Virus record (IMG/VR): IMGVR_UViG_3300032213_003144
Span: 106,426-170,425 of that record
Length of the DNA stretch: 64,000 nucleotides
Source of the DNA: a virus
Direction: 5' to 3' (one strand)
The notes under the pieces are model-generated. The model made no database searches. It was not told the origin of the DNA and was given only the letters and a program-made list of their open reading frames with translations. A program made the translations under genes and the position numbers. Numbering within the stretch: position 1 is the stretch's first letter; each line of letters begins with the position of its first letter. Shown in pieces: positions 7,526 through 36,475 of this stretch.

Positions 7526-7633
7526 TTTCACTAAACTATTTCTGTAAAACATTCACTTTTTTTAAATACTTACATTCTGGAACATGTTTTTCGTTTAATA
7601 TCGACTAGCAGCCGAGAGAAGTTGGTTCCAAAA

Positions 7634-10600
7634 ATGTCAAATGAAGCATTCGAATACAAGTCATCGGCGCACGGCTCTCAGTCCATCAAAGGAACGGTCA
7701 GCCTAGACGAGGCCCAGGGGATAGTCGAATGTTTCGTAGCTGGAATTGGTAATAAAGACTCAGTCGGAGACGTATGTGCTTCAGGAGCCTTCACAAAGAG
7801 CCTTCTTCGCAGAAAGCCAAGAGTTGTATGGGGCCACAACTGGAATGACCCTATTGGTAAAGTATTGGAAATATACGAGGTTGGTCCACAGGACCCACGC
7901 CTCCCACTGAAAATGAAACTTGCCGGGATAGGCGGTTTGTTTGCAAAAGTTCAATTTAATCTAAGTTCAGAAAAAGGAAAAGAAGCATTTGCTAATGTCC
8001 ACTTTTTCGGAGAAGAACAAGAGTGGTCGATTGGATACAAAACACTAAGAGCTCAGTTTGACCAAAAGTCGCAAGCAAATATTCTTTACGAAGTTGAACT
8101 CTACGAAGTTAGCCCTGTTCTCCACGGAGCCAATCAGCTAACAGGAACAATATCCGTTAAGGCAGATGATTCCGCCTACGGAGGTTCAGTAGCAATGATG
8201 CCGCAAAGAGAAGAGAGCAACGGCTACGAAGAAATGGAGAAGGAACTCTCCAATCTATTCGGTGCAAAAGTTTCTGTTCATTCAATCGATGGCGACGAGG
8301 TCGTATTCACACGCCAAGAGATGAACGGTGCGAAGAAGTACAAGTGCGGCTTCATGAGAAATCAAGGCCGATACATGTTCGGAACTCCTGAAGTAATCAA
8401 TATTCCGCAGTCCCCAGTTCGTTCTCCTCAATCAGCACCAATGCCTGTGGTGAGCGGAAGACCTACTCCACCCAACGACCCACAACGCGTCATTAGACCA
8501 CAACAGATGCCTTCAATACCAGTTGCGATTAAGCCAAGCGACAATGGGCTAATGATGATTCCTCTTCCAGCTGTTCAGTATGACTCAAACGAAAAGCCGT
8601 CCCTGGACAAGGAGGAAGCAGACCTCCGTGATGCGCTGTTAAAGATAGTTTCACGCCACGGCAAATTTAACGAAGACTCTAACGGCGTATGGGCTGGATA
8701 CAGCCCTGCAGAAGAAAACGAAGTAGCACGTATCGGTGTTAAATGCTCAAACTGCGTCTTCTATCAAGGCGGCTCAAAGTGCAAAATTATTGACATGCCA
8801 GTTGAGCCAGAAGGGAAATGCAGATTTGCTGTTATTCCAAATGGGATTGTTTTGAGCAGTGGTTCCAAAGAACTCGAAGAGCATGTTTCCGAAGCAGAAA
8901 ATGCAATCATCGATGTACTAGAACTAAAATACCCAGGCGAGTTTGTTCTTGGAATTGTCAGAAATGCAGTTGGTAAGAAAAAGAAGAAAAGAAATAAATA
9001 CAAAAATCTTTCAGAGTTTGGTGATGACGACGACATGGGTGAAAAGTCGTACGTAATACCAGTCGAGCCAAGTTTTGCATTTAGAGTAAAAACAGCCCTT
9101 GACCCAATATTCGATTACCACAGAGCAGAGACTTTTGTTGACTCAGAAGGAATAGTGATTACCTCTGGGGTAACTGAAAATCTCATAGACGCAGTCGATA
9201 CGGCTCTTCACAACTTAAAAAAAAAATTCTCAGAACATGAAATAGAGGGAAAATCCCTCGGTTACAGAATAGGTCGGTCGCTTGGTTCGAGGCTCGTAGA
9301 TAGACCAAACCTCGGTGGTGGTAGGGATAGAAACAACCGTGGCGGCGGTCGTGGATTCGGGATGCCGGATGGCGACCTTGACCCCAGGACAAGAGTTGAC
9401 AAGAATAGGGATGGAACACTTTTTGATAATGTCCCAGGATGGGAACAGCCAGACCCAACCCCAGATGGACCTGGTTCGATAAATAACCGAAAACTCTCTT
9501 CCTCACAAAGAAGAGATGTTGCCAATATTCCGAGCGAGAGCGTAAACCCAGAATCGGTAGACGGTGACGTAATAAAGAGCCGCAAACCAAGGTATACGGC
9601 TGATGACCTTGGTGAAATCCTTGGAGAAAAGAAGAAGCCAACGAAGAAGGCAGTAGCAAAAAAATCTCCTGTTAAAAAAGAAAAAGTAAAGCGTGGAGAA
9701 CTTGATTTCGCTAAGGGTCCCAAAAAAGATAAGACACCATCACTATCCTCTGGTGAGGAAAGACCGCCACGTACTGCAGTTGCAATGCAGATGGACCCAA
9801 AGAATTCGAAGCTTGCAAGACAGATTGATTACGACCCACAGAATGGTGACCTCACTGTTTATTACAGAGATGGCAAAAAAGAAACATTCAATGATGTTCC
9901 TTATGACCGCGTGCGTAAGGCTGGATTTGACGACAAGCCAGATGCATTAATCAGTGCACTACAGAGAGAACAAAAGAAACCACAAGGCAGGATTAGTCTT
10001 GCATCTGGGGAGCAAGAAAAGAGACTTACCCGCCACTCTGGTGACCCAAAATTTGAATCACTTGTATCTCCAGAAGAACTTGAAAAGCGTAAGAAGTTTG
10101 AAGAAGTAATTAAAGACTGGAAAGACTCTGGTTACGGATGGGAAGACGTTCCTAGATACAAGCCAGACGTCTACAAGTCCCCGGATTATTTGCGTGGTAG
10201 GGAAATGGGCGTCAATCAGGCCAAAGTTATGTGGCGTGGAGATAGCACGGTAGAGAGACCAAAGGGATTCAACGAAAAGCAAAAAGCCTCACTTGATTAT
10301 CAAGAGTGGTATTCACGAATGGTGATGAGGGCTGGAGCTTTTCTAGAAGCATCACGTGGCGATGACAACGAATTCTACAACGGCATGGAAGATGCCATGC
10401 ATGAATTCATGTACAACAATAGACCAGATATAACAACCTACAACATCGATGGAGATAGAAAAGAACCGATGGCCGACTGGATGCGTCAGTACGGATTCGA
10501 CCCAGGCTCACCGACTCCATTAAGAAAGAAAAAAGAAGGAAAGAAGAGAAGTTCACTCTCCCTCTCTTCTGGCGCAGACGACGATACAAGACCAAACTTT

Positions 10601-13600: not shown

Positions 13601-16600
13601 ATACAACTCGGAGTTGGTCCAAGAGACTCCAAGAAGTTGCGAGGAGCAAAACGTAACACCGTGAACGTTGCAACCACGTTTGAGGGAGAAACAAAGGAAT
13701 TCGCAGGAGAGATACCAGGGTACAGAGAGCTTGGGTACACAAGCTATGACTCTGCACCGAATATCGCAGAACGCCTTGCTAAAGATGGGATTGTTGACGA
13801 AGAAACTGATGATGGTTTTACTATTTCCCAAAATCTCAAAAAAGCTCTTGGCAGGTTTGCTGAAAGCTCGGATGAGAAGCTGTCAAAACAACATTTCCTA
13901 CTTCGTGATATAGAGAAAATTCAGGCATTACAAAATGGTGAACCAGTACCAACTGAAGATTCAATCGATGAAAAAATGGTTCAATATGCACAAATGCTTT
14001 GGGATGAAACAGTTGACCCAAAATCAAACGTGCTTATCCCGCAGGACTATCAAATCAAGATGTGGGCCCTAACAAATCCAGACCTTAGGTATGACAAAGG
14101 ACTGATTGGTCACAGGCCAAACGAAACAGTGTTTGATAAAGTTTTTCTTGGAACCGTTGAGGAAATGAACTCCGGAAAAATAAAAGTCGGAGACCTTGTA
14201 GAATTTAAAATTCCAGAAACTGGAGAAAAAGTTGCAGCAGTAATACGAAAACTAAACCCTCCATCAAAGAAAGAAACAAAAAAGGGTGAGCTATCTGGCA
14301 GTAGACAAGTAACCGGAACTGTATCGATTGTTTCTGTCACGAGTGATAAGCCTCTTGATGTGTTCATGTTCGACGAGGCCCAAGACGTAAACCCTGTGTT
14401 GGCAAAAGTACTCGCCGATAATGCAAAGAACATGCCGATAATAATGGTTGGCGACTCACGCCAAGCAATCTATGGGTTCAGAGGAGCCATGGATGCCCTG
14501 GAGAAAGCTAATGCAACATTCAGACTTCCTCTAACACGTTCATTTAGGTATGGAGCAATCCCTGCATATTTAGCCAATGTCGTGCTGATGCAAGGCAATA
14601 TAGACGATTTTAACTTTTATCAAAACATGGGAACACCCGAAAAAAACATATGGCACCATGTTGTAGGAGAGGCGCAAAATGTTGTTATAAACGCGCTCAA
14701 CATAAACGGACCAGATGGGAAAATACTTCCTAAAAAAGAACTTGAAAAGAAACTTAAATTCATAGAAGTTAAATACAAACTTGGCGGAAGAGCTGTCGAC
14801 TTTAAGGGCAAAAACGAAAAAGAAGTAAAAGACATCATTTCAAAACTTTACGACGAACATGTCCCACGCGCTGAAGGTCAGATAGTTGAGGACATGACTA
14901 GTGCTGATGCTGTTCTAACTTCTACCAACTCCGGAGTAATGGTCGAAGCCTTGAAGGTAATCCAGGACGGTATTAATGCACATCAAATCGCGTATCTCGA
15001 CCTAGATGGAATAGAAGATATAAAAAATCCAGAAGAGCTAGCTGGAAGACTAAGAACATTATCCGAGAAATACACTCTTGATGGTGTTGCTGTAGACCTT
15101 ATAGAAATATTGGAAAAAGATGGTAGAGATTCAATGCTCAATGCCGTCAATGAACTTAGAGAAGAATATGCTCCAGGTGGAGCTGACGGGAAAATACCAG
15201 CCATTGGCATACCTGCCGACACACATGAAAAGTTTCTTGATTTCTTCACTCAACTCGACTGGATTATTGGTGACCTTGATAAGAAGTTTGGAATCGAAGG
15301 AAGACCAAAACCATCTAAACTACTTAAAGACGTATGGAGATTTGATAAGAAAAAGGGCAGATACCCATCAAAAGATGAGATGCTGGCAAAAATTGACAAG
15401 ATGATTAAGGGTGGAGAATCAGAACTTCGCACGCTTTACAACCTTGCTTACCCCAAGTCCAAGGATGGAGGGGTAAGAGGTGATGCAAAAGGGGCAAGAT
15501 TCTTTAAAGACCTTTTACGTCCACAAGGCCAAAAATATACTGACATAAATGGAACTGAGGTTAAGTACCAAGGCCTTAGACCAATGCGTGAAGGAATCAA
15601 TCTTCCGAATATGGAATCTGGTCGAGACCACATAACTACCGAAGAGATGGACAGAGTCGGAAAGCTTAAGCCTGGAACAAAATCTGGAAGCAGCCAAAAA
15701 ATTTCCTGGATAATACCCAAGAAGGAAGAGAGCGTATCTGATGGTGAGGTATTCGTAAAACTTCACATCGGAGAAAACGGAAAGCCATCTGGAGCGTTGA
15801 TAATTGCAGGCGATGGAGCGCACGGAGGAAAGTACAAAGTCAGAAGATGGAATAAGGCCAAGAAAACCTGGAGCCCAATCGAAGAGGGGAAACCAGGGAA
15901 GATTGACTACCACGGTGATATATCAAAAGTTATAAAAAAGATGAAAGCTGAATACCCAGACGCCGTAATTGAATTTAGGCAGGGACTAATACAGCAAGTT
16001 GGTACAGCTCAGACATTCCCATCAGACATATCTGATGATTTTGTCCCACCAATGAAAGGTGATTTGCCAGATAGTTCTGTGCCAAGAGCTTCGCTTCCAG
16101 GGTTCTTCATACAAGGAAAAGACAGCGAAGAAACTGCGCGTCTTGCCAATGAACTCGGAAACAGGGTTAGACAACTTGCCACGGAAGGAAACACGGATAC
16201 CGACATTATGACGGTTCATGTTTCCAAGGGCAGGGAGTGGAAGAGGGTCAGACTCGCTGATGATTTCAAAAATCCTGAAGACATGGTCCCAGTAATACCA
16301 GAAGAAGAATTAGCAAAGTTAAGTCCAAAGGACAGACTTGCTGTCGAGAGACAGCTCCAATTGATGCGCAGAGAAGAGCACAACAAGGTATACATTGCAA
16401 TAACCAGAGCTCAAGAGCAAATAGATATTGGCGCAGTTCTTGCAAAACTTTATTTTGATGATTCACAAAACGCATCTATAAAAAGTGCAAAAGATAAAAT
16501 TGCAGAAAATCCAGATGGAATATATGACGAGCTTCAGGCTCCTGCTGGTTTCTATGTTCCGTATTCTGGTGATACAGAAGCACGCGATGCTGCCAGAAAA

Positions 16601-26500: not shown

Positions 26501-28619
26501 GGATGGGTGGGATGGTGTTGAGGTTACTGAAGTTGATTTGTCATCAGACATTCTGCCAACTGAATCACACCTAAAAGGTTCTTCTATAGACAAAGTCGTA
26601 TCTGGTCAGGAGCCATTTAGAGAGGGCTATTACCCGAACCTCGTAATTGACGTAGATGGGAAGATGTACATATCGGATGGTCATAATAGAGTCGCCATGA
26701 ATAGGGCTCTTGGAAATCAGACAATCCAAGCTCGAGTTATAGACCTTAGAAAGATTGAACAACCATGGGGCGAACAGAAGCCAGGTAAATCAAACTATGG
26801 TGGATACGACCTAGTTGAGCCAGACAATCCACTGCCAGAAAGCGGAAAGTACGCAGAAGATGTTGTTGACGCAGCAGACAAGCAACGAGAAAAACTAAAG
26901 CCTGTAGAGAAAGAAATAACCAAAACCCTAATCGACCTTTCCAACAAACATGGCGCTGTAATGATTGGTCTCGCTGCACGATTTAAATCAGTTAAATCTC
27001 TAGCGAGAAAGATAAATGACGAAAGAGGAAGCAGGACTGCCGAAGAGGCAGCTGCAGACATGTCTGATGTAATCAGGTACACGATGACATACACTCCAGA
27101 AAACTATGTGAGTGGAGCAAAATCTGTAATCGACGAATTGCAGTCAGCTGGATATAGGCTTACTGTTAAAAACTACTGGAAAACAGGCGACCCATATCAG
27201 GGGATAAATATTGCTGCAGTACATCCTGACGGAACCAGATTTGAGTTGCAATTTCATACCCCACAGTCTGCAGTGGAAAAAGAAGTAATTCACAAGGTCT
27301 ATGACGAATACAGGGTTGAAACTGACCCCAAAAAGCGTTGGAAGCTATACGACCGTATGACAAGAATGGCAGAACGAATTGATATTCCGGTTGAACCAGG
27401 TATTCAGGATATAGGTGAAACCAGATTCCAAGATTTCTCCCTTGCTTCCGGTGCTCAAATAGATAAGCCAGAAGCACCAGTACGGCAGTCAGGCGCAACC
27501 AAGAAAATAACCAACAGCGAAACAGTGGTAGACGAAAGCACTGGTCGCTCTGTTGGTAAAAATAGAGATAAAAAAGAAAGCACAAAGAAAGATGTTGCTG
27601 CTGAATGGTTCTCTTCGTTTAAGAGTTTTGAATCACCGGATTTTGGTAAGAATAAAGATGAATATGGAAGAATGCGAAAATACTACGAGAGCGTTGGTCT
27701 TACCAAGGACGTCAGAGACGACCTTATGCCGGTCTCTGGATATCTGGTTCACAAATCTGATATTCAGAAAAAGAAAAATGATGTTATAAAAAATAGAGTT
27801 GGCAACGTGGGCCCAGACGCAGTATTTGAGGTGCAAGATAACGACATAGTTGGTGACGGATTGACTTCCCTTGGTGATGTCGAGATAGTTCTGAAGCCAG
27901 AGGTATCAAAGAGGACCTCATATGGCAGAGGTTCTGGTATAAAGAATGGGCATAGACCGGTAAGGATGGACTCTACGTCTAGGGATGATATAGCGCATGC
28001 TGTTTCGTACTCTCAAAATTCCAACACCAACGCTGATTCCTCTGATGCACTGGTTAACCTCCTTGCCTCATCTATCGACGGGGATTTTTCAAGAGTATCC
28101 AGGAGTAGTAAAACAAAAGGAAACGAGAACTTCGAAGCACACATACTTGGCGGTTTTGATGCCGATGAGGTTGATTCAATTAACTACCCATATTCGAAAC
28201 TCTCAAAATTAAGCGAAAAAGAAGATATTTCAGACGTGGTAAACGATAAATCAATCGCTGCCTCACTTAGGGATATGGGATTCACTCAGGCAGAAATAGA
28301 TTACTTCTACTCGGTTGGTGGACCTGGTCAGATAAATACCGAAAGTATGGCGAAACTGCGCGAATACAGAATGTCGAAGAAAGTCAAAAATGAGTACTCA
28401 AGGCTTGGTTTCTCAAAGGTCAAAATTGCCCACCCACAAGGATTGAACATCGAGAACCCAAGAACTCATTCAAAAGCTTCTCGTGGGATAGAGGATATTG
28501 AGAGTCTTCTCAAGAAAGAAATAGCTACAGAGATAAAGAAGACCGTAGAGGAACTACTAAAGGAAATGCGCAAGGGTCAGAAGCCAAGAGTTGTCTCAAA
28601 GGTTGGTTCCGGAATATGA
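20520..28619 (+). CDS. Giant putative polyprotein: HExxH zincin, coiled coil, degenerate ART-like region, two ParB/Srx-like domains, RelA/SpoT-type synthetase, DUF3626-like C-terminus
   Basis: HEIAH; IVDGHHR and ISDGHNR; RFKSVKSLARK/DVIRYT/YQGIN/ELQFHT; VLKPEVSKRTS...FEAHILGG. Confidence 0.85.
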   Translation: MTGDRNKTRVIVSQRLISPLSCCNNFNSKALEFRSSVVQSLSSSRLDADAAVKAAMGKKPTYEDTDNRKREFTGTTKPGVTEIAPGIRVEGNQAWEEGRGLVLYPSWKSKRSMDLDANFGWIKTEKDIDFQAAQKKRKEKPQLQFTKYQVSKKTGDVIPDSEVNIDMAYPHLGLSRAQRRKKNNYISNPKMEFKAGLPGRSLESRVPGGNLLARTAGRFGIMRDAANKFRCPPGTPAANQFTDHLGSNCFGVSAERAAKFIAEKISDLMKVNDDSISLSSGAKSTWRERLGLARPDVELPGRSPSFDLETGDRIPTTPAEIVDVPGRLRWFKNATVNAQRNLARSESVIQKLESRMVTGDFTPEQRAVNADRHALLQILSNRGIWDINIEGRLSESEVNELIASRLESIPEWSSLTDEEKLALFTADKKRFYETERAMLDSLLEQFVIRPEHMRTIGTVQFRQAALPGNSEADTLWDAGTKGAEIKSVIRINLAQIMENQESLIPNMSASERLVISAVGAKTDAEALASVADFLINTEYTARGMAGLIDGPRSFARHIMLHEIAHTIQGEAFLATIKQQIDAVGYVQVPVVKDGKFTGALKEVSDFKKLTGMDLSALVISSQDDINLTALEETMSKIENVAFLAGSYPGQYKNPEKMEVYALESTAELWGLREEGLIFGDDIDDALGFMDDAIGAKASEARAATDLEMLEKLEESYFSPYERGEDVLPIRKHLRSAIELDKKAIAIKREEREIAAHREEIKDLDQDGLAEKLADTIFEIEIRKDILSNLEKERIDTEKAGLPLESIDEEIERIKSPLRLLEKKKQIEIAKNRDFNSDGKSKSDKEITDMALEINRAKTPATEEMVKRRETEARIDSLRSEAESLDEKSLMKTIADYDLKASSLKPDSDEYITAVADREIFIQQHIANQRAAGDTRPERAIRNELKAEITKEITASRKAVDEAKRGKLKPQKMKSKEQIAQNAKKERAKLRRNITKQQFEAVKEIDDFNTAEITQMLEPEKQVVIGRAINKRNNRLKRLGLESDPSSVDEGSLDEQVENILIPAMEAIDASDITTPFEMEVFLDSSKLSRVKPGKEIDIDSFGQGKVLSRSMKPGKPEKGSKKKRVVVQVKEGDRGLFPLAKKGDDQQFVIPPGKLRVVGRDKDGSLIVEISSQKDTVDVLDDLSKSIGDGPGDAIWRQGAKKKIQLVADRHAVKRKDEVSGTKSDDAIKVTETSESVVSEVSTAGAEFGETSSEKFLTLSSSAELTTESLRTKRHEKYGEVIGKPGERSESLKSSIAALMDEDRNLAASVEEILDNESNEQIIERIETAAQKLHSGFDRRVRVRMNEDDIRELAEQRKIRAIRNTDSSVSSGMSRRTERLSLSSGEKKMSRKDTEEAFAKRVKERITTKLSRIPPPKLEEGLSPSEEEKAIRKHVDKWFDNLTDAELAELGAKRFYLPDGTPLLSKTTGRVIYQTENNEVAASLLSLGQTVEMPEHKRGESLMVKQAASQIKKALKELAKENPGQIVTADLCKFYVEGKNVFCSENLKVDRLEMPQVGGRAVNNESMALRLWGSGLATAETVEAHPAFENGKLTVGLKARLATLENGTMEAEELEKDIEVLQLIGTGYEGAGVEQIAITPEQQRVMDKYGVTITARELKRLGEKWNRTATARIEGKEPDPSDELTDIERKNFFDNIDYSMIEPDGVDAFTNFLKMLGVGIQEDRVTKPDELMASQRELDGPKVDNISENILQAVKKLTEIKDPAEKKKEIERLRREHGLFKKILISKEGYIVDGHHRIIGKIVTNGVLSEDIPGLDQDDLDILGLPVRQIDMGIIELLTVSRIYQDFLGIKPASLSATDDDSFKTAGVVGKKSKKIITDAEDMHGIDKIPKITQQEFDDEHEKLKTQLEEKTDEIYARGQFIQVDSVGLNNTKESKLYKEVQLKRQKEATARVDAGKARSPGLKENRDRSVREYGMKWKPEYSEVKSVEESKAWDGWDGVEVTEVDLSSDILPTESHLKGSSIDKVVSGQEPFREGYYPNLVIDVDGKMYISDGHNRVAMNRALGNQTIQARVIDLRKIEQPWGEQKPGKSNYGGYDLVEPDNPLPESGKYAEDVVDAADKQREKLKPVEKEITKTLIDLSNKHGAVMIGLAARFKSVKSLARKINDERGSRTAEEAAADMSDVIRYTMTYTPENYVSGAKSVIDELQSAGYRLTVKNYWKTGDPYQGINIAAVHPDGTRFELQFHTPQSAVEKEVIHKVYDEYRVETDPKKRWKLYDRMTRMAERIDIPVEPGIQDIGETRFQDFSLASGAQIDKPEAPVRQSGATKKITNSETVVDESTGRSVGKNRDKKESTKKDVAAEWFSSFKSFESPDFGKNKDEYGRMRKYYESVGLTKDVRDDLMPVSGYLVHKSDIQKKKNDVIKNRVGNVGPDAVFEVQDNDIVGDGLTSLGDVEIVLKPEVSKRTSYGRGSGIKNGHRPVRMDSTSRDDIAHAVSYSQNSNTNADSSDALVNLLASSIDGDFSRVSRSSKTKGNENFEAHILGGFDADEVDSINYPYSKLSKLSEKEDISDVVNDKSIAASLRDMGFTQAEIDYFYSVGGPGQINTESMAKLREYRMSKKVKNEYSRLGFSKVKIAHPQGLNIENPRTHSKASRGIEDIESLLKKEIATEIKKTVEELLKEMRKGQKPRVVSKVGSGI

Positions 28620-29116
28620 AAGCAGCACTAGTTGGCTCATCTAGTGGTAGCAAGCTTTACTACATTATCGACGCGTCCGTCGACGATATGGATGGGGCAA
28701 TAGAAAAAGATGATGGAACGGTGATTATGGTTGATTTTCAGTCACATGTTGCTAGGGCGAGAAATATAAAGAGAATTAAAACTACCCCATTCCATAAGGT
28801 CTTCTGGGATGGGGATGATGGTGAGAATGAAAAAACATGGGAAATGATATTTATTCAAAAAAGTAAAGAGATACCAAAAGAAGTTCTAGTTGGCGTAAAC
28901 ATTCAGACATCACTTGGCAGAAATAAGAGGAATATCTCCCAAAAAAATGAAGACGCTTTAAGATTCAGTAAATCAGCAAAAAAATTATCCAGTAAATCAT
29001 GCTGTGATGGACAAGTGGTAAAGTCTATTAAGAACAAATTAATGCGATTTTCCTCATCCGAGGAGAGAAAGTCTATGTGGACAGCCATGTCCATACTTAG
29101 GGAGATTGAAGAATAA
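28616..29116 (+). CDS. Hypothetical protein
   Basis: ATGA overlap with the upstream stop. Confidence 0.7.
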   Translation: MKAALVGSSSGSKLYYIIDASVDDMDGAIEKDDGTVIMVDFQSHVARARNIKRIKTTPFHKVFWDGDDGENEKTWEMIFIQKSKEIPKEVLVGVNIQTSLGRNKRNISQKNEDALRFSKSAKKLSSKSCCDGQVVKSIKNKLMRFSSSEERKSMWTAMSILREIEE

Positions 29117-29760
29117 TGACAAGCGAAAACATTAAAGCCGACCCACTTGGCGGAATACTCCCACAGGAGCTTGTCACTGGAGACATCCTAAGAGGCCATG
29201 GACCACGACGGGGCAACCTAGAGCGTCTGCTGCGCTACTGGCGACCAATCATGAAGAAGCCAGGCGGTTTTAGGCGCTGCAGATTGATACTTGCTAACCA
29301 CCCAGAGCTCTACCCACTCTCCAATATATGTGCTTGGCTTCACCATGAGACAACTGGTCTGTGGCCAAATGAGGGATGTCATCACCCAACAATGAAGAAC
29401 TGCAGAAAAAAACTTCGGAAACTCACAAACTGGACCGACTCTCAATTCAGTTCATCACTGTCTGGGAAAAAACCCAAGAATGTCGTACGCGAGATTGGCG
29501 GAAATAAGTCTTTAGAAGAAGATGTTTTCTTTCATGATTTTGAAAATCAAGAATTTCAATTTAAATCAGTGGTGACCGAAAACGACGTAATGCACGCCAT
29601 TGAAGTTTTGAGAGACTTTCTCGAGATGGAAGATTCTTTTTGCAAGATGCTAAGAGACGACAAGAACTGGGAAATTTCAGGAGAAGACGAAAACGGCCAA
29701 GAGAAGTCCATGCCTTACGAGAACACAAAGTCACTCGAGGAAGAGTGTTGTGGAAATTAA
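29116..29760 (+). CDS. Conserved phage head-region protein with Cys/His motif
   Basis: LLRYW...PGGFRRC...ICAWLHHETTGLWP; translationally coupled. Confidence 0.65.
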   Translation: MTSENIKADPLGGILPQELVTGDILRGHGPRRGNLERLLRYWRPIMKKPGGFRRCRLILANHPELYPLSNICAWLHHETTGLWPNEGCHHPTMKNCRKKLRKLTNWTDSQFSSSLSGKKPKNVVREIGGNKSLEEDVFFHDFENQEFQFKSVVTENDVMHAIEVLRDFLEMEDSFCKMLRDDKNWEISGEDENGQEKSMPYENTKSLEEECCGN

Positions 29761-31744
29761 TCAAGACTGCTGCCCTGAAGTAAAGGTGAAGCGGACGATA
29801 GTTGCTGACTTATTTATCAAATCAAACACTGACGCCATACGTGGCATAGGTGCAGTCAATCAACTATTCGTTGACTACAAAGCAGTATCAAGATTGAATG
29901 GGAATACCAGAAGAAAAGATGATAACTCGATTCAATTTAAGGCTAATGCGGTAAGAAAACTAGGCTCGACTTTGACAAGTCTCGCGATACCTGGTGACTC
30001 CGACCCACTTAACTCACCGATTCGCTCTACCGTCTACAGAACATTAACCCCAGGAAAGCCAGGAATACCCGGAAGCATGCCAATGAAGCCAAACCGCGGA
30101 TATAGATGCCCAGAGGGGTATCAGTTCGGCGGCCGATTCACGGACTCCCGTCTCTCCACGTGTGGAGCAAAGCTGTTTGATATTCCATCCCCTCTTGGTC
30201 TTGCGATTAGTGCGGTAAGAAGAGCAATAAGAGGAAACGTGAGTCGTACGAGCGGTAGAGACATAACAGGAGTTGCCGCTCCGAGTTCTATCATTTCATC
30301 ACGAGCACCACAAATACCAAAAGTAACTCTTGATAATCCTTCAGCAAGAAGAACAGGCTCTTCGTCCCTCGTTAATGAGATAGGAAAATACAACAAATCC
30401 TCTAATGAACTTATTCGCAGAATGGTCAGACGTGACGGATTCGTCCTAGAGCCAGTAGTTCCAGACAAAGTGTTGAGAGCCATCCCAGACAACAGGGACA
30501 TGGAGGGCGCTACATATATTCGTTCATTACTGACAATGGAAGATGTTGGAAATGAAGAACTTGGAATGCTTTCAAACACAGGCGTTACATCTCTAATTTA
30601 CGTAATGCCAGGCGGTTCAACAATCAGTCTAGAGAAGGCACGAAAGTTAACGGTTGGTGAAAGAAGAAAACTGGGCAGAACTATAAGTACTGCGATGTCC
30701 AACCCTGTTGGCAAAGACCCTTCTTCGCGTCTTAAGTTCGTTGCGAATGAGATGGGTGATGGAATCAGGTATTCCGAAGATTTCCGTGGAGTAAAGAACC
30801 CAAACAGTTTGATTTCGGGAAGTCCAAAGTGGGTTAATGACCTGATAAAGAACAGGAAGATATCTTCTCCAAAGATACCTAGCTCTACGAGCCCATTAAA
30901 AGAAGACAAAAATGTGAAGTTGATAACCAACCTAGAGCAAGCAATAAATCACATTGCAAATGGCGGGAAACTGTCAGAGATTTCTCCAGAGATAATTGAA
31001 CAGATACTCCGCGACCCATCAATATTGGCAAGACAGGAACTTTCGGATGCCGTTTCATTGGTCGCTGCCGGGGATGGCAAATGGTTTCTTTACAAGGACC
31101 CAAAGGCGTTCCAGCATTTGGCTGAAAGATTTGCCTCGAGCTTACAGAAAAAACTCGGTCTACAGTCTCCAGATGTTGTATTTGCTGCAGGAAAGAACAA
31201 CAACAGAATGTATATGAGACAGGATATCGAAAGCGTAATACCTGGCTCCAAGTTCAATCCAAATATAAAATTCAACGACCTAGAGCCTCTTGATGTTGCA
31301 AGAATTATGGTTTCAGACTATCTGACTGACCAAAGAGAAAGACCAATGACGTCGATATATCCAGTCGACACAAGCGAGGGTGTTCGCGCAATTGTGGCCA
31401 ATAACAACTCGTCAGGACTTGTTGACCTATCAAAAATAGAAATTACAAAGAGAATGAAGATGGCAATTGACAACTACTACGAGTCACAGTTAATACCTTC
31501 CTATTCAGAGTACTACCAGGCCTTGAAGGTTGAACAGAGAATCATATTTATGAAGTACCTATCCCAACTTATAAACAGGGCACGCTCAATTAACAAGCAA
31601 GAACTACTTGGTGAACTTGATAAATATGGACTCTCTACTGGAGAGAAAATACACATAAACATCATCGACAAATTATTCTCACTGAGAATCGAATCACTAA
31701 ATTCCCAAAAAGAAAAACTCAAATCAGTAGTACGCGGCGGGTAA
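29750..31744 (+). CDS. Head-region protein with N-terminal CPxG module and degenerate HipA/PI3-4-kinase-like C-terminus
   Basis: YRCPEGYQFGGRFT; HLAERFAS...LGLQSPDV, SDYLTDQRER, IVANNN resemble HipA-like kinase motifs with catalytic substitutions. Confidence 0.6.
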   Translation: MEINQDCCPEVKVKRTIVADLFIKSNTDAIRGIGAVNQLFVDYKAVSRLNGNTRRKDDNSIQFKANAVRKLGSTLTSLAIPGDSDPLNSPIRSTVYRTLTPGKPGIPGSMPMKPNRGYRCPEGYQFGGRFTDSRLSTCGAKLFDIPSPLGLAISAVRRAIRGNVSRTSGRDITGVAAPSSIISSRAPQIPKVTLDNPSARRTGSSSLVNEIGKYNKSSNELIRRMVRRDGFVLEPVVPDKVLRAIPDNRDMEGATYIRSLLTMEDVGNEELGMLSNTGVTSLIYVMPGGSTISLEKARKLTVGERRKLGRTISTAMSNPVGKDPSSRLKFVANEMGDGIRYSEDFRGVKNPNSLISGSPKWVNDLIKNRKISSPKIPSSTSPLKEDKNVKLITNLEQAINHIANGGKLSEISPEIIEQILRDPSILARQELSDAVSLVAAGDGKWFLYKDPKAFQHLAERFASSLQKKLGLQSPDVVFAAGKNNNRMYMRQDIESVIPGSKFNPNIKFNDLEPLDVARIMVSDYLTDQRERPMTSIYPVDTSEGVRAIVANNNSSGLVDLSKIEITKRMKMAIDNYYESQLIPSYSEYYQALKVEQRIIFMKYLSQLINRARSINKQELLGELDKYGLSTGEKIHINIIDKLFSLRIESLNSQKEKLKSVVRGG

Positions 31745-31747
31745 CCC

Positions 31748-32500
31748 ATGAAAACATATGCGGTAATAAAAGATTCAGTAAGAAATACACCACTCGTTAT
31801 AGCTGTTCGGGAAGAGGGGATGGTTTCTGTTCACGGTATCAATGAGTACGGTAAGTCGGTCACTCAGCACATTCTCAAGAGTGGCTCAATTGACAGCAAG
31901 TCAATGCCTGATGGGGTTGAAATAACTGAATTTAAGTCAATTACTGGCAATACAGCTGCTCTTTTTGAGAGCTACATCAGCAAGTCGATAATGAACGTAC
32001 CAATTACTGAGTCAATTATCAATACCGAATTTGACAAAAAGACACGTGGGAAATCGTTCAAGGAAAGAAGCATTCTCTCCGAGGGTAAGGAGTCATCCCA
32101 GCATTCAGGCAAGCAGATACGCAAGTTCTCAAATGTAACAGCAAAAATTAATATGGTTGCATTTAAGGCCGGCTCATTTAAGAGTAGATTAAAAAAGAGT
32201 TCTGTCATAACATCGCTGTCTGCTTACGGAGTTGGGTTTGATTCGTCTGCGAACAAAATCGTGCAGAAAGATTCAAAGAGAATCACCAATCACACCATAG
32301 ACAAAATCAATGATTATGTCGGTGAAGGACAAATGAGAAGGTTTGCCAGAAAGACAATGGTGAGCAATTTAGACGGAACCAGACTCACCAGACGTTCAAG
32401 TGCATTGTCTAAAAAAATTGAAGAAATTTCAGAAAAGTCAGTAAGACCTGAACATAGATATTCTGAATCAATCAAGTCAAGACTCAAGAGACTCTCATGA
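31748..32500 (+). CDS. Hypothetical protein
   Basis: 250-aa ORF in the operon. Confidence 0.7.
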   Translation: MKTYAVIKDSVRNTPLVIAVREEGMVSVHGINEYGKSVTQHILKSGSIDSKSMPDGVEITEFKSITGNTAALFESYISKSIMNVPITESIINTEFDKKTRGKSFKERSILSEGKESSQHSGKQIRKFSNVTAKINMVAFKAGSFKSRLKKSSVITSLSAYGVGFDSSANKIVQKDSKRITNHTIDKINDYVGEGQMRRFARKTMVSNLDGTRLTRRSSALSKKIEEISEKSVRPEHRYSESIKSRLKRLS

Positions 32501-33582
32501 GCGAGAGAAAAAGGAAATCTACATACACAAACCCAAAGCTGCGCGAACGTCTTAAGAACAGAATCATGAGCGGCTCCCTTGGTGGCCGAAGCGGTCAGTG
32601 GTCAGCGAGAAAAGCTCAGCTCCTTGCTGCTGCATATAAGAAAAATGGTGGTGGATACCGTGGCGGGAAGTCGAAGACGCAGCGCTCCCTCTCTGATTGG
32701 ACCAAGGAAAAATGGACTACATCTGACGGAAAGCCGGCCATTAGAGATAGTGGGACGACTCGGTATCTACCTAAAAAGGCATGGTCAAAACTTAGTGACG
32801 CTCAGAAAAAAGCAACGAATACAAAAAAGAAAAAAGGAAGCAAACTTGGAAAACAGTTTGTTGCAAATACCCAGGCCGCAGCCGATGCTGGTCGCTCTGC
32901 GCGGAAAAGCTACTTTGTCGACTCGGATGCTGAAACCAAGTCTCTAAATCTCTTTAATGAAATAAGAATAAAATCAGATAAGAAACTTCAAGAAGCGATG
33001 GATGTCGCAAAAATGATTGGTTGTTCTGGTGTCCACAAGGACAAGGACGGCAATTGGATGCCATGCTCGACAATGGAAGAGATGGACAGAATCTCCAACC
33101 TCGCAGAAGGCCCCAAGTGGAGAACCGTTGTTCCCGAGTCATCTGGTCCCAAGACCAGAGCAAAGGGAAGAAGAAGGCAAATAATGAACCCGAACCAACA
33201 ATTTGAGGAATTACAAGAAAAACCAATAAGGGGCATAGTTGGTGTTCCAGGGGTTGGGATAGTCTCCGGGAAGTCAATTGGCCCAGAATACGTTAATGAA
33301 AATGGGCCAGACGTTTTCCTAGACCAAGAATCAGCTAGGGCTCGTTCGCGTCAGCTTGGCTGCATAGGAATAAGCCGAAGAATGTCCAAAAATGGACGGG
33401 TTGTCTGGATGCCATGCACAAATATGACCGATTACGCGAACAGGGCTGGGTCAACATCACTGGGACGCAGAAACATTCAGAACAGAGAAAAAGAACGAAT
33501 GGAATCCGCAGTAAGAACAGTGCTCGCCAAGAAAAATCCAAAGGTTCCATTGAGCCAGAGATTGAACAAAAAAAGTAAATAA
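32497..33582 (+). CDS. Basic head-region protein (DUF5872-like N-terminus plus two GC..WMPC repeats)
   Basis: GQWSARKAQLLAAAYKKNGGGY, SLSDWTKEKW, RYLPKKAW; IGCSG..WMPC and LGCIG..WMPC. Confidence 0.7.
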   Translation: MSERKRKSTYTNPKLRERLKNRIMSGSLGGRSGQWSARKAQLLAAAYKKNGGGYRGGKSKTQRSLSDWTKEKWTTSDGKPAIRDSGTTRYLPKKAWSKLSDAQKKATNTKKKKGSKLGKQFVANTQAAADAGRSARKSYFVDSDAETKSLNLFNEIRIKSDKKLQEAMDVAKMIGCSGVHKDKDGNWMPCSTMEEMDRISNLAEGPKWRTVVPESSGPKTRAKGRRRQIMNPNQQFEELQEKPIRGIVGVPGVGIVSGKSIGPEYVNENGPDVFLDQESARARSRQLGCIGISRRMSKNGRVVWMPCTNMTDYANRAGSTSLGRRNIQNREKERMESAVRTVLAKKNPKVPLSQRLNKKSK

Positions 33583-33730: not shown

Positions 33731-35098
33731 ATGTCGCAAGACAAAGCAAGAACAGAAGAGTTGCAATCAGCTCTTCGCACGAAAATGGCAGAGAATAAGG
33801 CCATTGCGGATTCATTCAAAGTTGAAGAAGGAACTGTCATAGTTTCGACAGACCAGAAATCAGCATTCGACAAGAACATGAGAGACATCAAGGAAATTAA
33901 GTCACTCTTGTCCGACCTTGAAACAATGGGCTCAGTAGAGTCATGGTCAAATCAGCCACAGGGCGAAACAGTTTCATCTGCTTACGCCGCTGCAGCTGCC
34001 GACATGAATCACCTGTCGTCACATGAAATCAAGTCAATTGGTCAGATGTTCCTTGACTCACCAGAGTTCAAGTCTTTGGCCAATGGTCGTAACGGTGCAA
34101 ACATGTCATCACCATGGCAAGTTGCAACTTCGTTGACAACACACAACTTCGGCATTCAGCAGAAGGACATTTACACAGCATTGCCAACAACATCAGTAAC
34201 AAACAGCCGCCTCGGTGAGTTTGGAACAGTTCAACGCGATGCCATGGTTCTTCCTCCAATGCGTACGAAGCGTGTCCGTGACTTGTTCCCAGTTCGTAGA
34301 ACAAACGCAGCAGTTATCGAGTACTTCCGTCAGCTTGGTTTTACAACCCTTCAAGCTGGTCATGGAACAAACTCGGCATCATCTGTTGCTGAAAGAACAA
34401 CAGCTGGAACAGCATTTGGTTTGAAGCCACAATCTTCATTCGCATTCGTTGGCGAGCAAGCTCCAATTCGCACATTGGCACACTGGGAAGCTGCACACCG
34501 CAACGTCCTCGCCGATGAGCCACAATTGCGCTCAATCATCGACAACGAACTGATGTACGGTCTCCGTCTTCTTGAGGATAATCAAATCCTCAACGGCAAC
34601 GGAACTGGCGAGAACCTTCTCGGTATTCTCCAGACACCAAACATCCAGAGCTACAGCTGGTCAAGCGGCGCAACCTTGCCGGTACCAGACACCAAGGCTG
34701 ATGCACTTCGCCGTGCAGCAACTCTATCGTTCTTGGCATACTACGAGCCATCTGGCATCGTTTTGCACCCGAACGACTGGGAAGATATCGAATTGACGAA
34801 GGACGTAAACGGCCAGTACTTGGTCGCTATGTCAGTCGCAATGGGCGGCGAGCCAAAGGTTTGGAGAATGCCAGTAATTGACACTCCAGCCATCACTGAA
34901 GGCCAAGCACTTGTTGGTGCCTTCGGAACCGGTGCTCAGTTGTACGACAGAGAAGAAGCAAGCATTCGCATCAGCGAACAGCACTCAGACTTCTTTGTCC
35001 GCAATGCGATTGTGGTTCTTGCAGAACAGAGACTTGCTCTCGCTGTCAAGCGCCCAGAAGCATTCGTCAAGGTGACATTCAACAACGCACCAGCGTGA
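33731..35098 (+). CDS. Major capsid protein (HK97 fold)
   Basis: N-terminal helical delta-like domain, VAE..LKPQS, EDNQILNGNGTG, VLHPNDW, FVRNAIVVLAEQRLALAVKRPEAFVK; strong AGGAG RBS. Confidence 0.95.
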   Translation: MSQDKARTEELQSALRTKMAENKAIADSFKVEEGTVIVSTDQKSAFDKNMRDIKEIKSLLSDLETMGSVESWSNQPQGETVSSAYAAAAADMNHLSSHEIKSIGQMFLDSPEFKSLANGRNGANMSSPWQVATSLTTHNFGIQQKDIYTALPTTSVTNSRLGEFGTVQRDAMVLPPMRTKRVRDLFPVRRTNAAVIEYFRQLGFTTLQAGHGTNSASSVAERTTAGTAFGLKPQSSFAFVGEQAPIRTLAHWEAAHRNVLADEPQLRSIIDNELMYGLRLLEDNQILNGNGTGENLLGILQTPNIQSYSWSSGATLPVPDTKADALRRAATLSFLAYYEPSGIVLHPNDWEDIELTKDVNGQYLVAMSVAMGGEPKVWRMPVIDTPAITEGQALVGAFGTGAQLYDREEASIRISEQHSDFFVRNAIVVLAEQRLALAVKRPEAFVKVTFNNAPA

Positions 35099-35174: not shown

Positions 35175-35206
35175 ATACGGACATTTATGTGCGAGAATTG
35201 GTAATC

Positions 35207-36475
35207 ATGGATAACAACGAAATTGACTCACTGTACGAAGAGTTGCTCAAAATCGAAGAGATTTTTATAAAGAGTGATGTAGCTACAGAACATATAGAAG
35301 ACGAAAAAGTGCACCTTGAAAGCACACCTCTTTACGACGAGTATTACGGAGCAAGAGTTTTCAGTGAACTTTCTGATAAGTTTGATGAAAGAGAAGAGAA
35401 GTCAGCGTTAAAAGACCCAGACGGTGGTCTTACTGCTGAAGGAAGAAAATTTTTCAAGCGCACTGAAGGCGCAAACTTAAAGCCTGGAGTAAAAGGCCCA
35501 GCAGATACTCCAGAAAAAATGAGAAGAAAAGGTTCATTCCTTACACGCTTCTTTACAAACCCTTCAGGTCCATTGGTTGACGAAAAAGGAAGAGCAACAA
35601 GACTTGCTTTATCCGCTACAGCTTGGGGCGAGAGAGTACCTAAGAATGCAGAAGATGCTGCTGCATTAGCATCAAAGGGTAGAGCACTGCTTGATAAATA
35701 CGAAAATTCAAAAAAGAAGTCAGAAGAAATCGAAGATATTGAAGTAAAAGCTGGCGGCTCTGCCCTTGGTGCTTCAATAGGTCAGGCTGCTGGTGGTGCT
35801 GCTCCAACTGGAACGAATCCACAAGATACAAGAGACCATGACGGCGATGGAATGATTTTTGATGGAACACCACAAGAGCAAAGAAAGCCGTACGAACGCT
35901 CCAAGGATGCCAACTACGAGAAGCAAAGAAGAAAGTTTGTACGAGAGCAACTCAGAAGGCAAGGCATAAAAGCAAACAGAAGAGTTGAAGATAGAAGTAA
36001 GGAAGAAAGAGATGCTCGAGCTAGAGCAAGAGCAGCTTTCGATAAAGTTCTACGTGACGGACAAGGAAAACCAACGGCTGACGGCCTACCAAAGGGTCCA
36101 AGTTATCCACCAGGCCAATCCGTACCAAAGAAGTATCCACCTGGACAAAAGCCTGAATATAGAAAACCCGAGCCACCAGCAGATAGAAAACCTGCTGATA
36201 GATATCCAGAGCCAGGCAAGAAGTATCCTCCTGGTCAGAAACCTTCCCCATCGAGCCCACGTGACCAAAAGCCAGCCGATAGATACCCGCAAACCAGCAA
36301 TCCTTCTGCCACACGACCTGGAGCAGATAGGACAGAGCAAGCAAGTGGCCCAGCCAGAGGTCCGCGAGTTGACAGGGACAAGAATCCAGACCCAGGATTC
36401 TTCAAGCCAAAACCACAGCTCGGACCCCCTACACCAAAAAGAACACCAGGTAACAACGGGTTACGCAGGTCCTAA
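35207..36475 (+). CDS. Head-region protein (DUF6321-like domain, DxDGDG module, Pro-rich repeats)
   Basis: KDPDGGLTAEGR..ANLKPGV..RRKGSF; DHDGDGMIFDGTP; YPPGQ and KPADRYP repeats. Confidence 0.7.
   Translation: MDNNEIDSLYEELLKIEEIFIKSDVATEHIEDEKVHLESTPLYDEYYGARVFSELSDKFDEREEKSALKDPDGGLTAEGRKFFKRTEGANLKPGVKGPADTPEKMRRKGSFLTRFFTNPSGPLVDEKGRATRLALSATAWGERVPKNAEDAAALASKGRALLDKYENSKKKSEEIEDIEVKAGGSALGASIGQAAGGAAPTGTNPQDTRDHDGDGMIFDGTPQEQRKPYERSKDANYEKQRRKFVREQLRRQGIKANRRVEDRSKEERDARARARAAFDKVLRDGQGKPTADGLPKGPSYPPGQSVPKKYPPGQKPEYRKPEPPADRKPADRYPEPGKKYPPGQKPSPSSPRDQKPADRYPQTSNPSATRPGADRTEQASGPARGPRVDRDKNPDPGFFKPKPQLGPPTPKRTPGNNGLRRS

Follow-up and report, generated by a model that had tools for sequence, protein, structure and literature searches.

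The DNA described here forms the right-hand end, 64 kb in length, of an IMG/VR viral record of 170,425 bp (IMGVR_UViG_3300032213_003144), which CheckV rates as complete; we refer to this 64-kb stretch as the window. Its head gene region contains a single open frame of 8.1 kb (20520..28619, + strand) encoding P0001, a 2,699-aa polyvalent protein that carries an Apk/Tas1-type RelA-SpoT homologue (RSH) synthetase domain (26856..27434, +; aa 2113-2305, with predicted catalytic residues D2183 and E2242). The domain is genuine, has all of its parts, and evolves under strong purifying selection. Upstream of P0001 lie the genes for the terminase (3875-5188, −) and portal (5447-7525, +), followed by the adjacent giant open reading frame (ORF), a protease polyprotein of 3,694 aa (7622-18706, +). 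A Peptidase_S78 prohead protease domain forms its N-terminus (7721..8152, +; Pfam PF04586, E value of 7.5e-11; PHROG head maturation protease), and ArdC-N, MPTase-PolyVal (a zincin; PF18818, E value of 9e-39), and UvrD-like helicase domains follow. In gene order, a 558-aa ORF lies between this polyprotein and P0001. Downstream, five ORFs without clear families separate P0001 from the gene for the HK97-fold major capsid protein (33731-35098).

All five synthetase motifs (syn1 to syn5: RxKxxxSxxxK, DxxR, YxGxN/YxSxH, ExQxxT, and HxxY) are found within aa 2154-2261 of P0001. An earlier note on this DNA, made from the letters alone, had recognized a RelA/SpoT synthetase of Tas1/Apk flavor in a head-region protein, and the motifs, the match to SaEAS, the fold, and the portal, protease, and capsid context described here all bear this out. 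Every motif that it quoted is present in the frame of P0001: RFKSVKSLARK (aa 2154-2164, nt 26979-27011), DVIRYT (aa 2183-2188, nt 27066-27083), KNYW (aa 2217-2220, nt 27168-27179), YQGIN (aa 2226-2230, nt 27195-27209), FELQFHT (aa 2241-2247, nt 27240-27260), and HKVY (aa 2258-2261, nt 27291-27302). The domain does end at an FSLASG sequence (aa 2306-2311, nt 27435-27452), and the end that the note gave, 27435, is the first base of this motif; the start that it gave, 26860, misses the codon phase by one base, a trivial discrepancy.

Among all PDB chains, phmmer returned a single match to the domain, 8vx3 (SaEAS; E value of 1.2e-15). The Asp of DVIRYT aligns with the SaEAS active-site residue D121, which had been mutated for crystallization (PMC12691689). 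By BLASTP, the domain is 32% identical over 190 aa to the MuF-Apk2 domain of Aaphi23 (E value of 8e-29). A tblastn search against 50,697 phage records gave 128 matches, with 29 to 33% identity among the best of the matches listed. The annotated matches are the C-terminal ends of proteins labeled as "head morphogenesis" or minor head proteins, from phages of Streptococcus (including Streptococcus pneumoniae), Aggregatibacter/Haemophilus, Mannheimia, and Pasteurella; Ralstonia phage records make up the majority of the matches, and the one listed has no annotation. The PHROG family "head morphogenesis" likewise matches the synthetase domain. A HMMER scan of 1.84 billion representative proteins retrieved 3,507 relatives of the domain at an E value of ≤1e-3. 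In a 70-sequence alignment, both lysines of syn1, the D..R.T of syn2, KN.W, the Y.G.N of syn3, the E.Q.H of syn4, and the lysine that follows are invariant, while at least 90% of the homologues keep the H..Y of syn5. The window domain has all of the conserved residues, and the motif residues are also invariant in an alignment with two MuF-Apk2 domains. Some metagenomic relatives (P0014, P0015, P0046, and P0049) contain two to six tandem Apk-type domains per polypeptide.

An AlphaFold2 model of the domain, built on the 70-sequence alignment, had a predicted local distance difference test score (pLDDT) of 96.2 and a predicted template modeling score (pTM) of 0.90. Foldseek ranked SaEAS first (8vx3; template modeling [TM] score of 0.77 to 0.81) and Tas1 second (6ox6_A; 0.58 to 0.62), followed by RelP, RelQ, CapRel, Rel, and RelA; the 39 matches listed at an E value of ≤1e-3 are RSH synthetases throughout. 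Because CapRel (7ztb and 9erv) is among these fold matches, a role in which the domain pyrophosphorylates tRNA 3′-CCA ends and thereby blocks translation, as do CapRel, FaRel2, and PhRel2, has to be weighed. According to the part of the SaEAS study drawn on here, several toxic small alarmone synthetases (toxSAS) of the same fold target tRNA (PMC12691689). However, the TM scores for CapRel (0.42 to 0.44) are far below those for SaEAS (0.77 to 0.81) or Tas1 (0.58), and the sequence relatives of known activity are nucleotide pyrophosphokinases. We therefore consider a tRNA-directed activity very unlikely.

Relative to two orthologues at synonymous divergences (dS) of 0.23 to 0.28, the ratio of nonsynonymous to synonymous substitution (dN/dS) for the domain is 0.022 to 0.035. 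One result speaks against the assignment. The excised domain scored only 17 bits (E value of 0.007) against Pfam PF04607 (RelA_SpoT), for which the gathering score is 27; the whole of P0001 had no Pfam match, and PF04607 had no match in the genome-level search. We do not read this subthreshold score as a refutation, because PF04607 recognizes just 3/77 close relatives of the domain. A RelA_SpoT profile match had been named in the earlier note as a check on its claim; formally, the outcome is borderline, yet solved RSH enzymes match unambiguously in both sequence and fold. Since the Pfam model is blind to nearly the whole clade, domains of this kind are probably underannotated in viral metagenomes. 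The subthreshold score and the lack of an adjacent immunity gene in the window phage are also the general grounds on which the domain could be viewed as a catalytically dead remnant that serves as a spacer or scaffold of a head protein. Against this stand catalytic motifs that are all intact and invariant, a dN/dS of 0.02 to 0.035, a model of very high confidence with a complete active-site cleft fold, and a co-occurring inhibitor-like gene (described below); of all the explanations considered, a dead remnant is the least credible.

Orthologues of P0001 exist in IMG/VR contigs. The conserved N-terminal module of the protein (20520..22670, +; aa 1-717), which includes an invariant RCPPGTPAANQFTD motif and an HEIAH sequence (aa 561-565, nt 22200-22214), is 33 to 68% identical across eight giant proteins (alignment A5) and is encoded at 274 IMG/VR loci; it is the family-defining "carrier" part. 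Searches of Pfam, PHROG, and the PDB gave no identification for the N-terminal, middle, or C-terminal regions of P0001, and no Pfam family was assigned to its HExxH sequence. The MuF family (PF04233) had no match in the whole genome at an E value of ≤1, nor was there any Pfam match on P0001. A 21-aa similarity (BLASTP E value of 0.001) places an RCPxG...FTD...C motif, invariant in the P0001 family, both in P0001 (aa ∼229-249, nt 21205-21272) and in a 664-aa head-module ORF (29750-31744; motif at nt 30100-30168). This motif may be a common assembly or targeting element.

Directly before the synthetase is a domain (26517..26774, +; aa ∼2000-2085) with a DGHNR motif that is probably ParB/sulfiredoxin (Srx)-like, an assignment made with low confidence. 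The Pfam ParBc_2 match has an E value of 0.028, and the Atlas feature score to ParB_N/sulfiredoxin clusters is 0.91, both weak indications. Against the PDB, a profile search with this domain gave just spurious NHL-repeat hits, and phmmer gave no match. The domain is co-conserved with the synthetase at 65 to 89% identity, whereas the N-terminal modules of the same relatives are only ∼30 to 40% identical. P0001 is at least 93% identical to its closest orthologues (L003 and L004) except at aa ∼1300-2000 (nt 24400-26520), where identity falls to 11 to 58%. This pattern indicates a cassette swapped, apparently recently, between conserved flanks.

Following the synthetase domain, which ends at aa 2305, are 394 further residues of P0001 that include a C-terminal module (27648..28574, +; aa 2377-2685) with no Pfam match. 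In relatives, this module is a standalone gene of 302 to 346 aa (BLASTP E values of 4e-40 to 4e-66) that comes after a small ORF resembling the inhibitor IapK; such separate genes are found in L011 (6683-7591), L012 (17692-18732), and L013 (13900-14919). In the window lineage, it appears that the module became joined in frame to the end of the synthetase, with the small ORF moved elsewhere.

Among the 77 close relatives of the synthetase domain, fusion partners include Phage_Mu_F (7/77) and an XkdF-type prohead protease (7/77), as well as VG15, ADP-ribosyltransferase, 2H phosphoesterase, LPD1, and minor capsid protein domains; Peptidase_S78_2 and Phage_min_cap2 are among the fused Pfam families. 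From these fusions to head proteins and prohead proteases, it follows that the clade is predominantly virion associated. DUF6321 is also a fusion partner among relatives of the domain, and DUF3721 and DUF6321 domains are carried by head-module ORFs 32497-33582 and 35189-36475 of the window phage.

The FSLASG sequence at the end of the synthetase belongs to a recurrent boundary motif, x-L-S/A-S-G, which we counted using the pattern [SATVILF]-L-[SA]-S-G. There are 24 copies in three giant ORFs, compared to 1 in the remaining ∼42,000 residues encoded by the genome, and shuffled sequences contain <0.1 copies per protein. The protease polyprotein (7622-18706) has 13 copies, P0001 has 3 (aa 277, 1381, and 2307), and ORF 48683-56434 has 8. 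In P0001, the site nearest upstream of the synthetase is SLSSG (24660..24674, +; aa 1381-1385), with GLSSG at the conserved position in orthologues, and the site at the C-terminal boundary of the synthetase is SLASG (27438..27452, +; aa 2307-2311), which is ALSSG in orthologues L005 to L008. Seven relatives (P0005, P0007, P0008, P0009, P0011, P0012, and P0013) end at the position equivalent to SLASG. Across orthologues, the positions of the sites are kept while the neighboring sequence drifts. Two orthologues with 72% domain identity (L006 and L007) have two added cassettes of ∼120 to 220 aa after the synthetase (aa ∼2200-2545), each bounded by SLASG or SLSSG. More distant relatives contain R-LSSG (7, 5, and 3 copies) or G-LSSG (4 copies), where 0.06 to 0.2 copies are expected; these lineage-specific versions suggest coevolution with a cognate protease. 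A protease recognition site positioned at module boundaries would look like this. A literature search returned nothing specific on a known LSSG prohead-protease motif. The processing enzyme could be the MPTase zincin or the S78 domain, both encoded in the adjacent ORF, or the HExxH module of P0001 itself.

In P0007, P0008, and P0010, an extra site lies between the ParB-like domain and the synthetase; the window protein does not have this site. The sites nearest to the synthetase are those at aa 1381 and 2307, and the predicted product is therefore a fragment of ∼926 aa rather than a free synthetase domain. This fragment would comprise the variable region, the ParB/Srx-like domain, and the synthetase.

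At canonical Apk2 loci, the gene order is MuF-Apk2, then IapK (a Tis1-like inhibitor of ∼70 aa), and often then Aph1 (an HD hydrolase). A tis1-like gene is always present at MuF-Apk2 loci, while the presence of aph is variable (PMC10083569). The earlier note had recognized no HD-type hydrolase in the window, and this result extends to the whole 170-kb genome, in which searches with the Aph1 protein, HD (PF01966), and HD_4 (PF13328) gave no match. The suggestion of the same note that the next ORF, ORF28616 (ORF166; 28616..29116, +; 166 aa), might be the immunity gene did not hold up. Homologues of ORF28616 are present in 18/18 large related contigs, 16 of which are without the synthetase domain, and the protein is unrelated to IapK. 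It is instead a conserved head-module gene with no family match, and its homologues are syntenic in L011 to L013 as one of a conserved series of head genes. The obvious guess is thus corrected.

A better candidate emerges from relatives in which the giant protein ends with the synthetase. In L011 to L013, an ORF of 82 to 84 aa begins a few bases 3′ of the domain, and ORFs of 82 to 99 aa are found within ∼15 nt after the domain in L011 to L013, G007 to G010, G025, G026, G066, and G071. The small ORFs of L011 to L013 align with IapK via a C-terminal motif, "..dGF.d.eEIsekeA..". A hidden Markov model (HMM) of the domain-following small ORFs and two IapK proteins had a single match in the genome, the 83-aa protein P0152 (61618..61869, +; E value of 4e-23), which is encoded ∼34 kb from the synthetase.

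We examined co-occurrence in 68 related contigs, consisting of 18 large contigs (9 of them at least 90% complete) and 50 smaller fragments. Two of the large contigs encode the synthetase, and the small gene is present in exactly those two, ∼14 nt 3′ of the domain. The synthetase is encoded on 11 of the smaller fragments, four of which also have the small gene, compared to 0/39 fragments without the synthetase. This distribution is a stronger argument for P0152 as the partner than either profile or structure comparison. P0152 is thus a better candidate immunity protein than ORF28616, its resemblance to IapK/Tis1 being weak. Directly after P0152 is P0153 (61876-62301, +; 141 aa), which is similar to Aph1 in size and contains a KEKFGGLRYY motif. 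Across the phage family, P0153 is widely conserved whether or not the synthetase is present, and we rejected it as a partner, given its presence in 13/16 relatives without the domain and its absence from G025 and G026. No HD or other Pfam match was found for P0153, nor does P0152 belong to any Pfam family.

The domain and the small gene act as a mobile presence/absence cassette (13/68 contigs have the domain), and there is mosaic exchange in the region. Both observations would fit a domain that is not directed at the newly infected host but belongs to a toxin-immunity pair used in competition, to exclude coinfecting relatives that lack the inhibitor, or to an addiction-like module, with any association with the virion being incidental or absent. 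Antagonism via MuF toxin-immunity pairs has been proposed in the part of PMC10083569 consulted here. However, the polyprotein in which the synthetase sits belongs to the head module, and all relatives conserve the other modules of this polyprotein; in addition, the closest homologues of the synthetase occur as fusions with head proteins and prohead proteases. Competition mediated by lysogens is also unlikely because no integrase or lysogeny module was found: the genome search detected no tyrosine integrase and no serine recombinase above the threshold, the sole resolvase match being subthreshold. We regard this explanation as improbable, though less so than a tRNA-directed activity.

The genome encodes a ribonucleotide reductase, a primase-helicase, and four tRNAs. 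The closest cultured relatives of the capsid protein are those of Brevibacterium and Gordonia phages (48% identity), and relatives are 145 to 172 kb in length with direct terminal repeats. The record itself is a free viral contig. The source has the appearance of a large virulent phage and in this differs from the temperate phages that bear MuF toxins, although the absence of an integrase is not proof of this lifestyle.

Taken together, these results are best explained by an Apk-type toxin that is carried as virion cargo, cleaved at LSSG-type sites, ejected, and inhibited by P0152; we assign this reading a probability of roughly 0.55. Under it, aa 2113-2305 of P0001 would form a catalytically competent, toxin-type RSH pyrophosphokinase of the Apk1/Apk2/SaEAS group that transfers pyrophosphate from ATP to the 3′-OH of a purine nucleotide. 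Conversion of ATP or ADP to (p)ppApp, with drainage of the ATP pool, is the most likely reaction. P0001 would be made late, together with the head proteins, and the synthetase would be one of its cargo modules. The protein would probably be incorporated into the prohead and probably be cut at x-L-S/A-S-G by a phage protease, and the resulting ∼926-aa fragment would leave the capsid together with the DNA and disturb the nucleotide pools of the host as infection begins. Self-protection of the phage would come from the 83-aa IapK/Tis1-like protein, which is predicted to bind and block the active site, and not from an HD hydrolase or ORF28616. Host shutoff, and a precursor that stays inactive until it is cleaved, are two further elements of the earlier note that we infer only.

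Several observations count against this reading. The case for packaging, cleavage, and ejection is drawn from gene position and analogy. The third motif-rich polyprotein (48683-56434, +; 2,583 aa, 8 sites) is encoded among replication genes and not head genes, and its PHROG matches are to the exonuclease subunit of a DNA polymerase and to the C-terminal domain of ParB; this location fits poorly with cleavage confined to the prohead, and processing may be wider. For P0152, hhalign of its family against six IapK proteins gave a probability of 88% and an E value of 3e-6 over only 23 columns. Its AlphaFold2 model (pLDDT of 93) had no Foldseek match in the PDB, and an HMM of the family retrieved only noise from PDB sequences. 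A VIA-align scan placed Tis1 (6ox6_B) at rank 3 of 48,161 chains, with 59 residues aligned (full-length), but with a weak Z score of 4.0 that is tied with unrelated chains. The overall co-occurrence of the small gene (6/13 domain-positive contigs and 0/55 domain-negative contigs) is not phylogenetically independent, but at least three sublineages are involved. Seven domain-positive fragments, all 11 to 34% complete, do not have the small gene; those exceptions that can be traced belong to lineages in which 32 to 35 kb separate the two genes, an arrangement also seen in the window, G001, and G005. A scan for sigma-70 promoters and terminators around P0152 performed no better than shuffled sequences, and the early-promoter motif AGTCTG-N12-TANNNT has 0 copies in the window.

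The product of the enzyme calls for the same caution. Adenosine 3′-pyrophosphokinases are marked by RYT, GxN, and YH, in place of the guanosine-type AVR, SxH, and IR (Paulet et al., PMC12226406). The window domain has RYT in syn2, GIN in syn3, and FH in syn4; the Phe of syn4 is shared with SaEAS and replaces the Tyr of Apk2. SaEAS is promiscuous and prefers guanylate acceptors, with Km values 20 to 30 times lower than those for adenylates, and VpEAS and AaEAS, of the Apk1-like superfamily, yield only (p)ppGpp and are still toxic (PMC12691689). The product is uncertain for these reasons. Delivery as described above could therefore be coupled to a different chemistry, in which the domain makes mainly (p)ppGpp or a mixture of guanosine and adenosine products and, as a signaling effector, forces the transcription and translation of the host into a stringent-like program instead of draining ATP. 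In favor of this chemistry is SaEAS, the best PDB match in both sequence and structure. In addition, swaps of syn motifs left the specificity of Apk2 unchanged, so that the motifs do not set the acceptor (PMC12226406), and exactly this role has been proposed for the RelA/SpoT domains of polyvalent proteins by Iyer et al. (PMC5512222). On the other side, RYT in syn2 and GxN in syn3 are adenosine-type signatures, the characterized phage-borne Apk2 enzymes of S. pneumoniae and Mannheimia haemolytica make (p)ppApp only (PMC12226406), and a dedicated protein inhibitor is typical of toxic members. Predominant (p)ppGpp or mixed synthesis is the foremost of the alternatives, but a doubtful one.

The placement of the domain was assessed in a quick, unrooted tree of the top hits and six MuF-Apk2 domains. 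A long, fully supported branch parts the clade of the window domain from the MuF-Apk2 domains, which also counts against the favored reading. The cluster that contains the window domain in this tree is well supported and consists almost entirely of giant head proteins. We call the domain Apk type, with (p)ppApp as the most likely product and (p)ppGpp or a mixture as the alternative.

Returning to the virion cargo toxin, a more specific form of this reading can be offered tentatively. In it, the capsid-delivered ParB/Srx-Apk fusion would act as a timed host shutoff in a large, apparently virulent lineage. An ATP-consuming burst of (p)ppApp or (p)ppGpp at DNA entry would be ended by the IapK/Tis1-like protein made from the incoming genome, which would let replication proceed. 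If this is true, the move of the inhibitor gene from a place directly behind the toxin to a nonstructural cluster 34 kb away would have uncoupled its timing from late head-gene expression. We consider this scenario possible but well short of probable.

The (p)ppApp synthetases of the Apk type, potent toxins of bacteria, have been described among type VI secretion system (T6SS) effectors and in the MuF proteins that temperate phages encode. In the window, the same type of enzyme has another vehicle for delivery, one of far greater size: a polyvalent polyprotein of the head region, marked by a recognizable boundary motif. New here are the family of the carrier, the LSSG motif at module boundaries, the unit of ParB/Srx-like domain and synthetase, a domain that is present or absent like a cassette, and the relocated IapK/Tis1-like partner that replaces ORF28616. 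Because the toxin module and the inhibitor-like gene come and go together in a widespread family of uncultured phages (274 IMG/VR loci), the family offers a natural comparative system and a concrete candidate toxin-inhibitor pair. The role of phage-borne Apk toxins in infection, including whether they are virion borne, is described as explicitly open in the part of PMC10083569 used here.

Apk2 is one of the closest known systems. Apk2 toxins are fused to MuF in temperate phages (Bacteroides caccae, S. pneumoniae, M. haemolytica, and Pasteurella multocida) and share with P0001 a head-associated carrier and an Apk-type RSH domain, with 29 to 33% identity and all syn motifs, including RYT and GxN, in common. 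In both cases, a small gene accompanies the domain; in the window phage its likeness to Tis1/IapK is weak, and it is adjacent in relatives of this phage. In contrast, the window carrier is a 2,699-aa polyvalent protein without MuF and with a different conserved N-terminal module. The toxin domain is C-terminal in Apk2 but internal in the window (it is C-terminal in seven relatives of the P0005-P0013 series), and iapK lies directly downstream of Apk2, whereas the window candidate is 34 kb away. The window genome has no Aph1/HD hydrolase, no integrase was found in this ∼170-kb phage while Apk2 phages are temperate, and the domain falls outside the MuF-Apk2 cluster in the quick unrooted tree. With no MuF, no C-terminal position, and no adjacent immunity gene, the window domain does not belong to the Apk2 family in its current definition.

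SaEAS, from Streptomyces albidoflavus (8vx3), is the closest solved structure and shares the FH of syn4 and the aligned catalytic Asp. However, it is an exported, Sec-secreted, stand-alone enzyme of ∼200 aa that acts extracellularly and has no immunity gene (PMC12691689), whereas the window domain is a polyprotein module with an inhibitor-like partner. The Tas1/Apk1-Tis1 pair of Pseudomonas aeruginosa (6ox6) provides the precedent for a delivered (p)ppApp synthetase toxin neutralized by a small protein (∼76 aa) occluding the active site. Tas1 has the same fold as the window domain (TM score of 0.58 to 0.62), with no sequence-level match at an E value of ≤10 in the phmmer search of the PDB, and differs in being delivered as a T6SS PAAR effector and not by a phage capsid.

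Head-internal proteins of other phages offer a parallel for the predicted processing. The ejection (E) proteins of the giant phages SPN3US and phiKZ and the internal proteins of T4 are contained in the head, cut by the prohead protease at a short consensus, and ejected into the host, as described in portions of PMC5694885 and PMC10052503. They are processed by other protease families at other cleavage motifs, and those portions report no RSH domain; the likeness is one of analogy only.

The architecture of P0001 fits the polyvalent proteins surveyed by Iyer, Burroughs, Anand, de Souza, and Aravind in 2017, a survey that described RelA/SpoT and ParB-like domains as phage-type cargo, predicted that this cargo is packaged in the capsid and enters the host along with the DNA, and noted MuF-RelA/SpoT fusions (PMC5512222). 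P0001 resembles the proteins of that survey in being a multieffector polypeptide encoded among the head genes of a portal-terminase phage, next to an ORF with ArdC-N, MPTase-PolyVal, and helicase domains. It unites an HExxH module, a ParB/Srx-like domain, an RSH domain, and a C-terminal module for which relatives have a gene of its own, and processing peptidases (PF18818 MPTase-PolyVal and PF04586 Peptidase_S78) are encoded in the adjacent ORF, as expected of polyvalent proteins. In the survey, RelA/SpoT cargo is found mainly in spirochete and epsilonproteobacterial prophages and in MuF fusions, and (p)ppGpp signaling is discussed (PMC5512222). The window adds a domain of the Apk type, an LSSG motif that recurs at boundaries, an S78 protease in a sister polyprotein, and a candidate inhibitor gene that can be tracked. 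The synthetase of P0001 is best classed with the cargo of phage polyvalent proteins, as a module of the Apk type; in broad outline, such a pairing had been foreseen in 2017.

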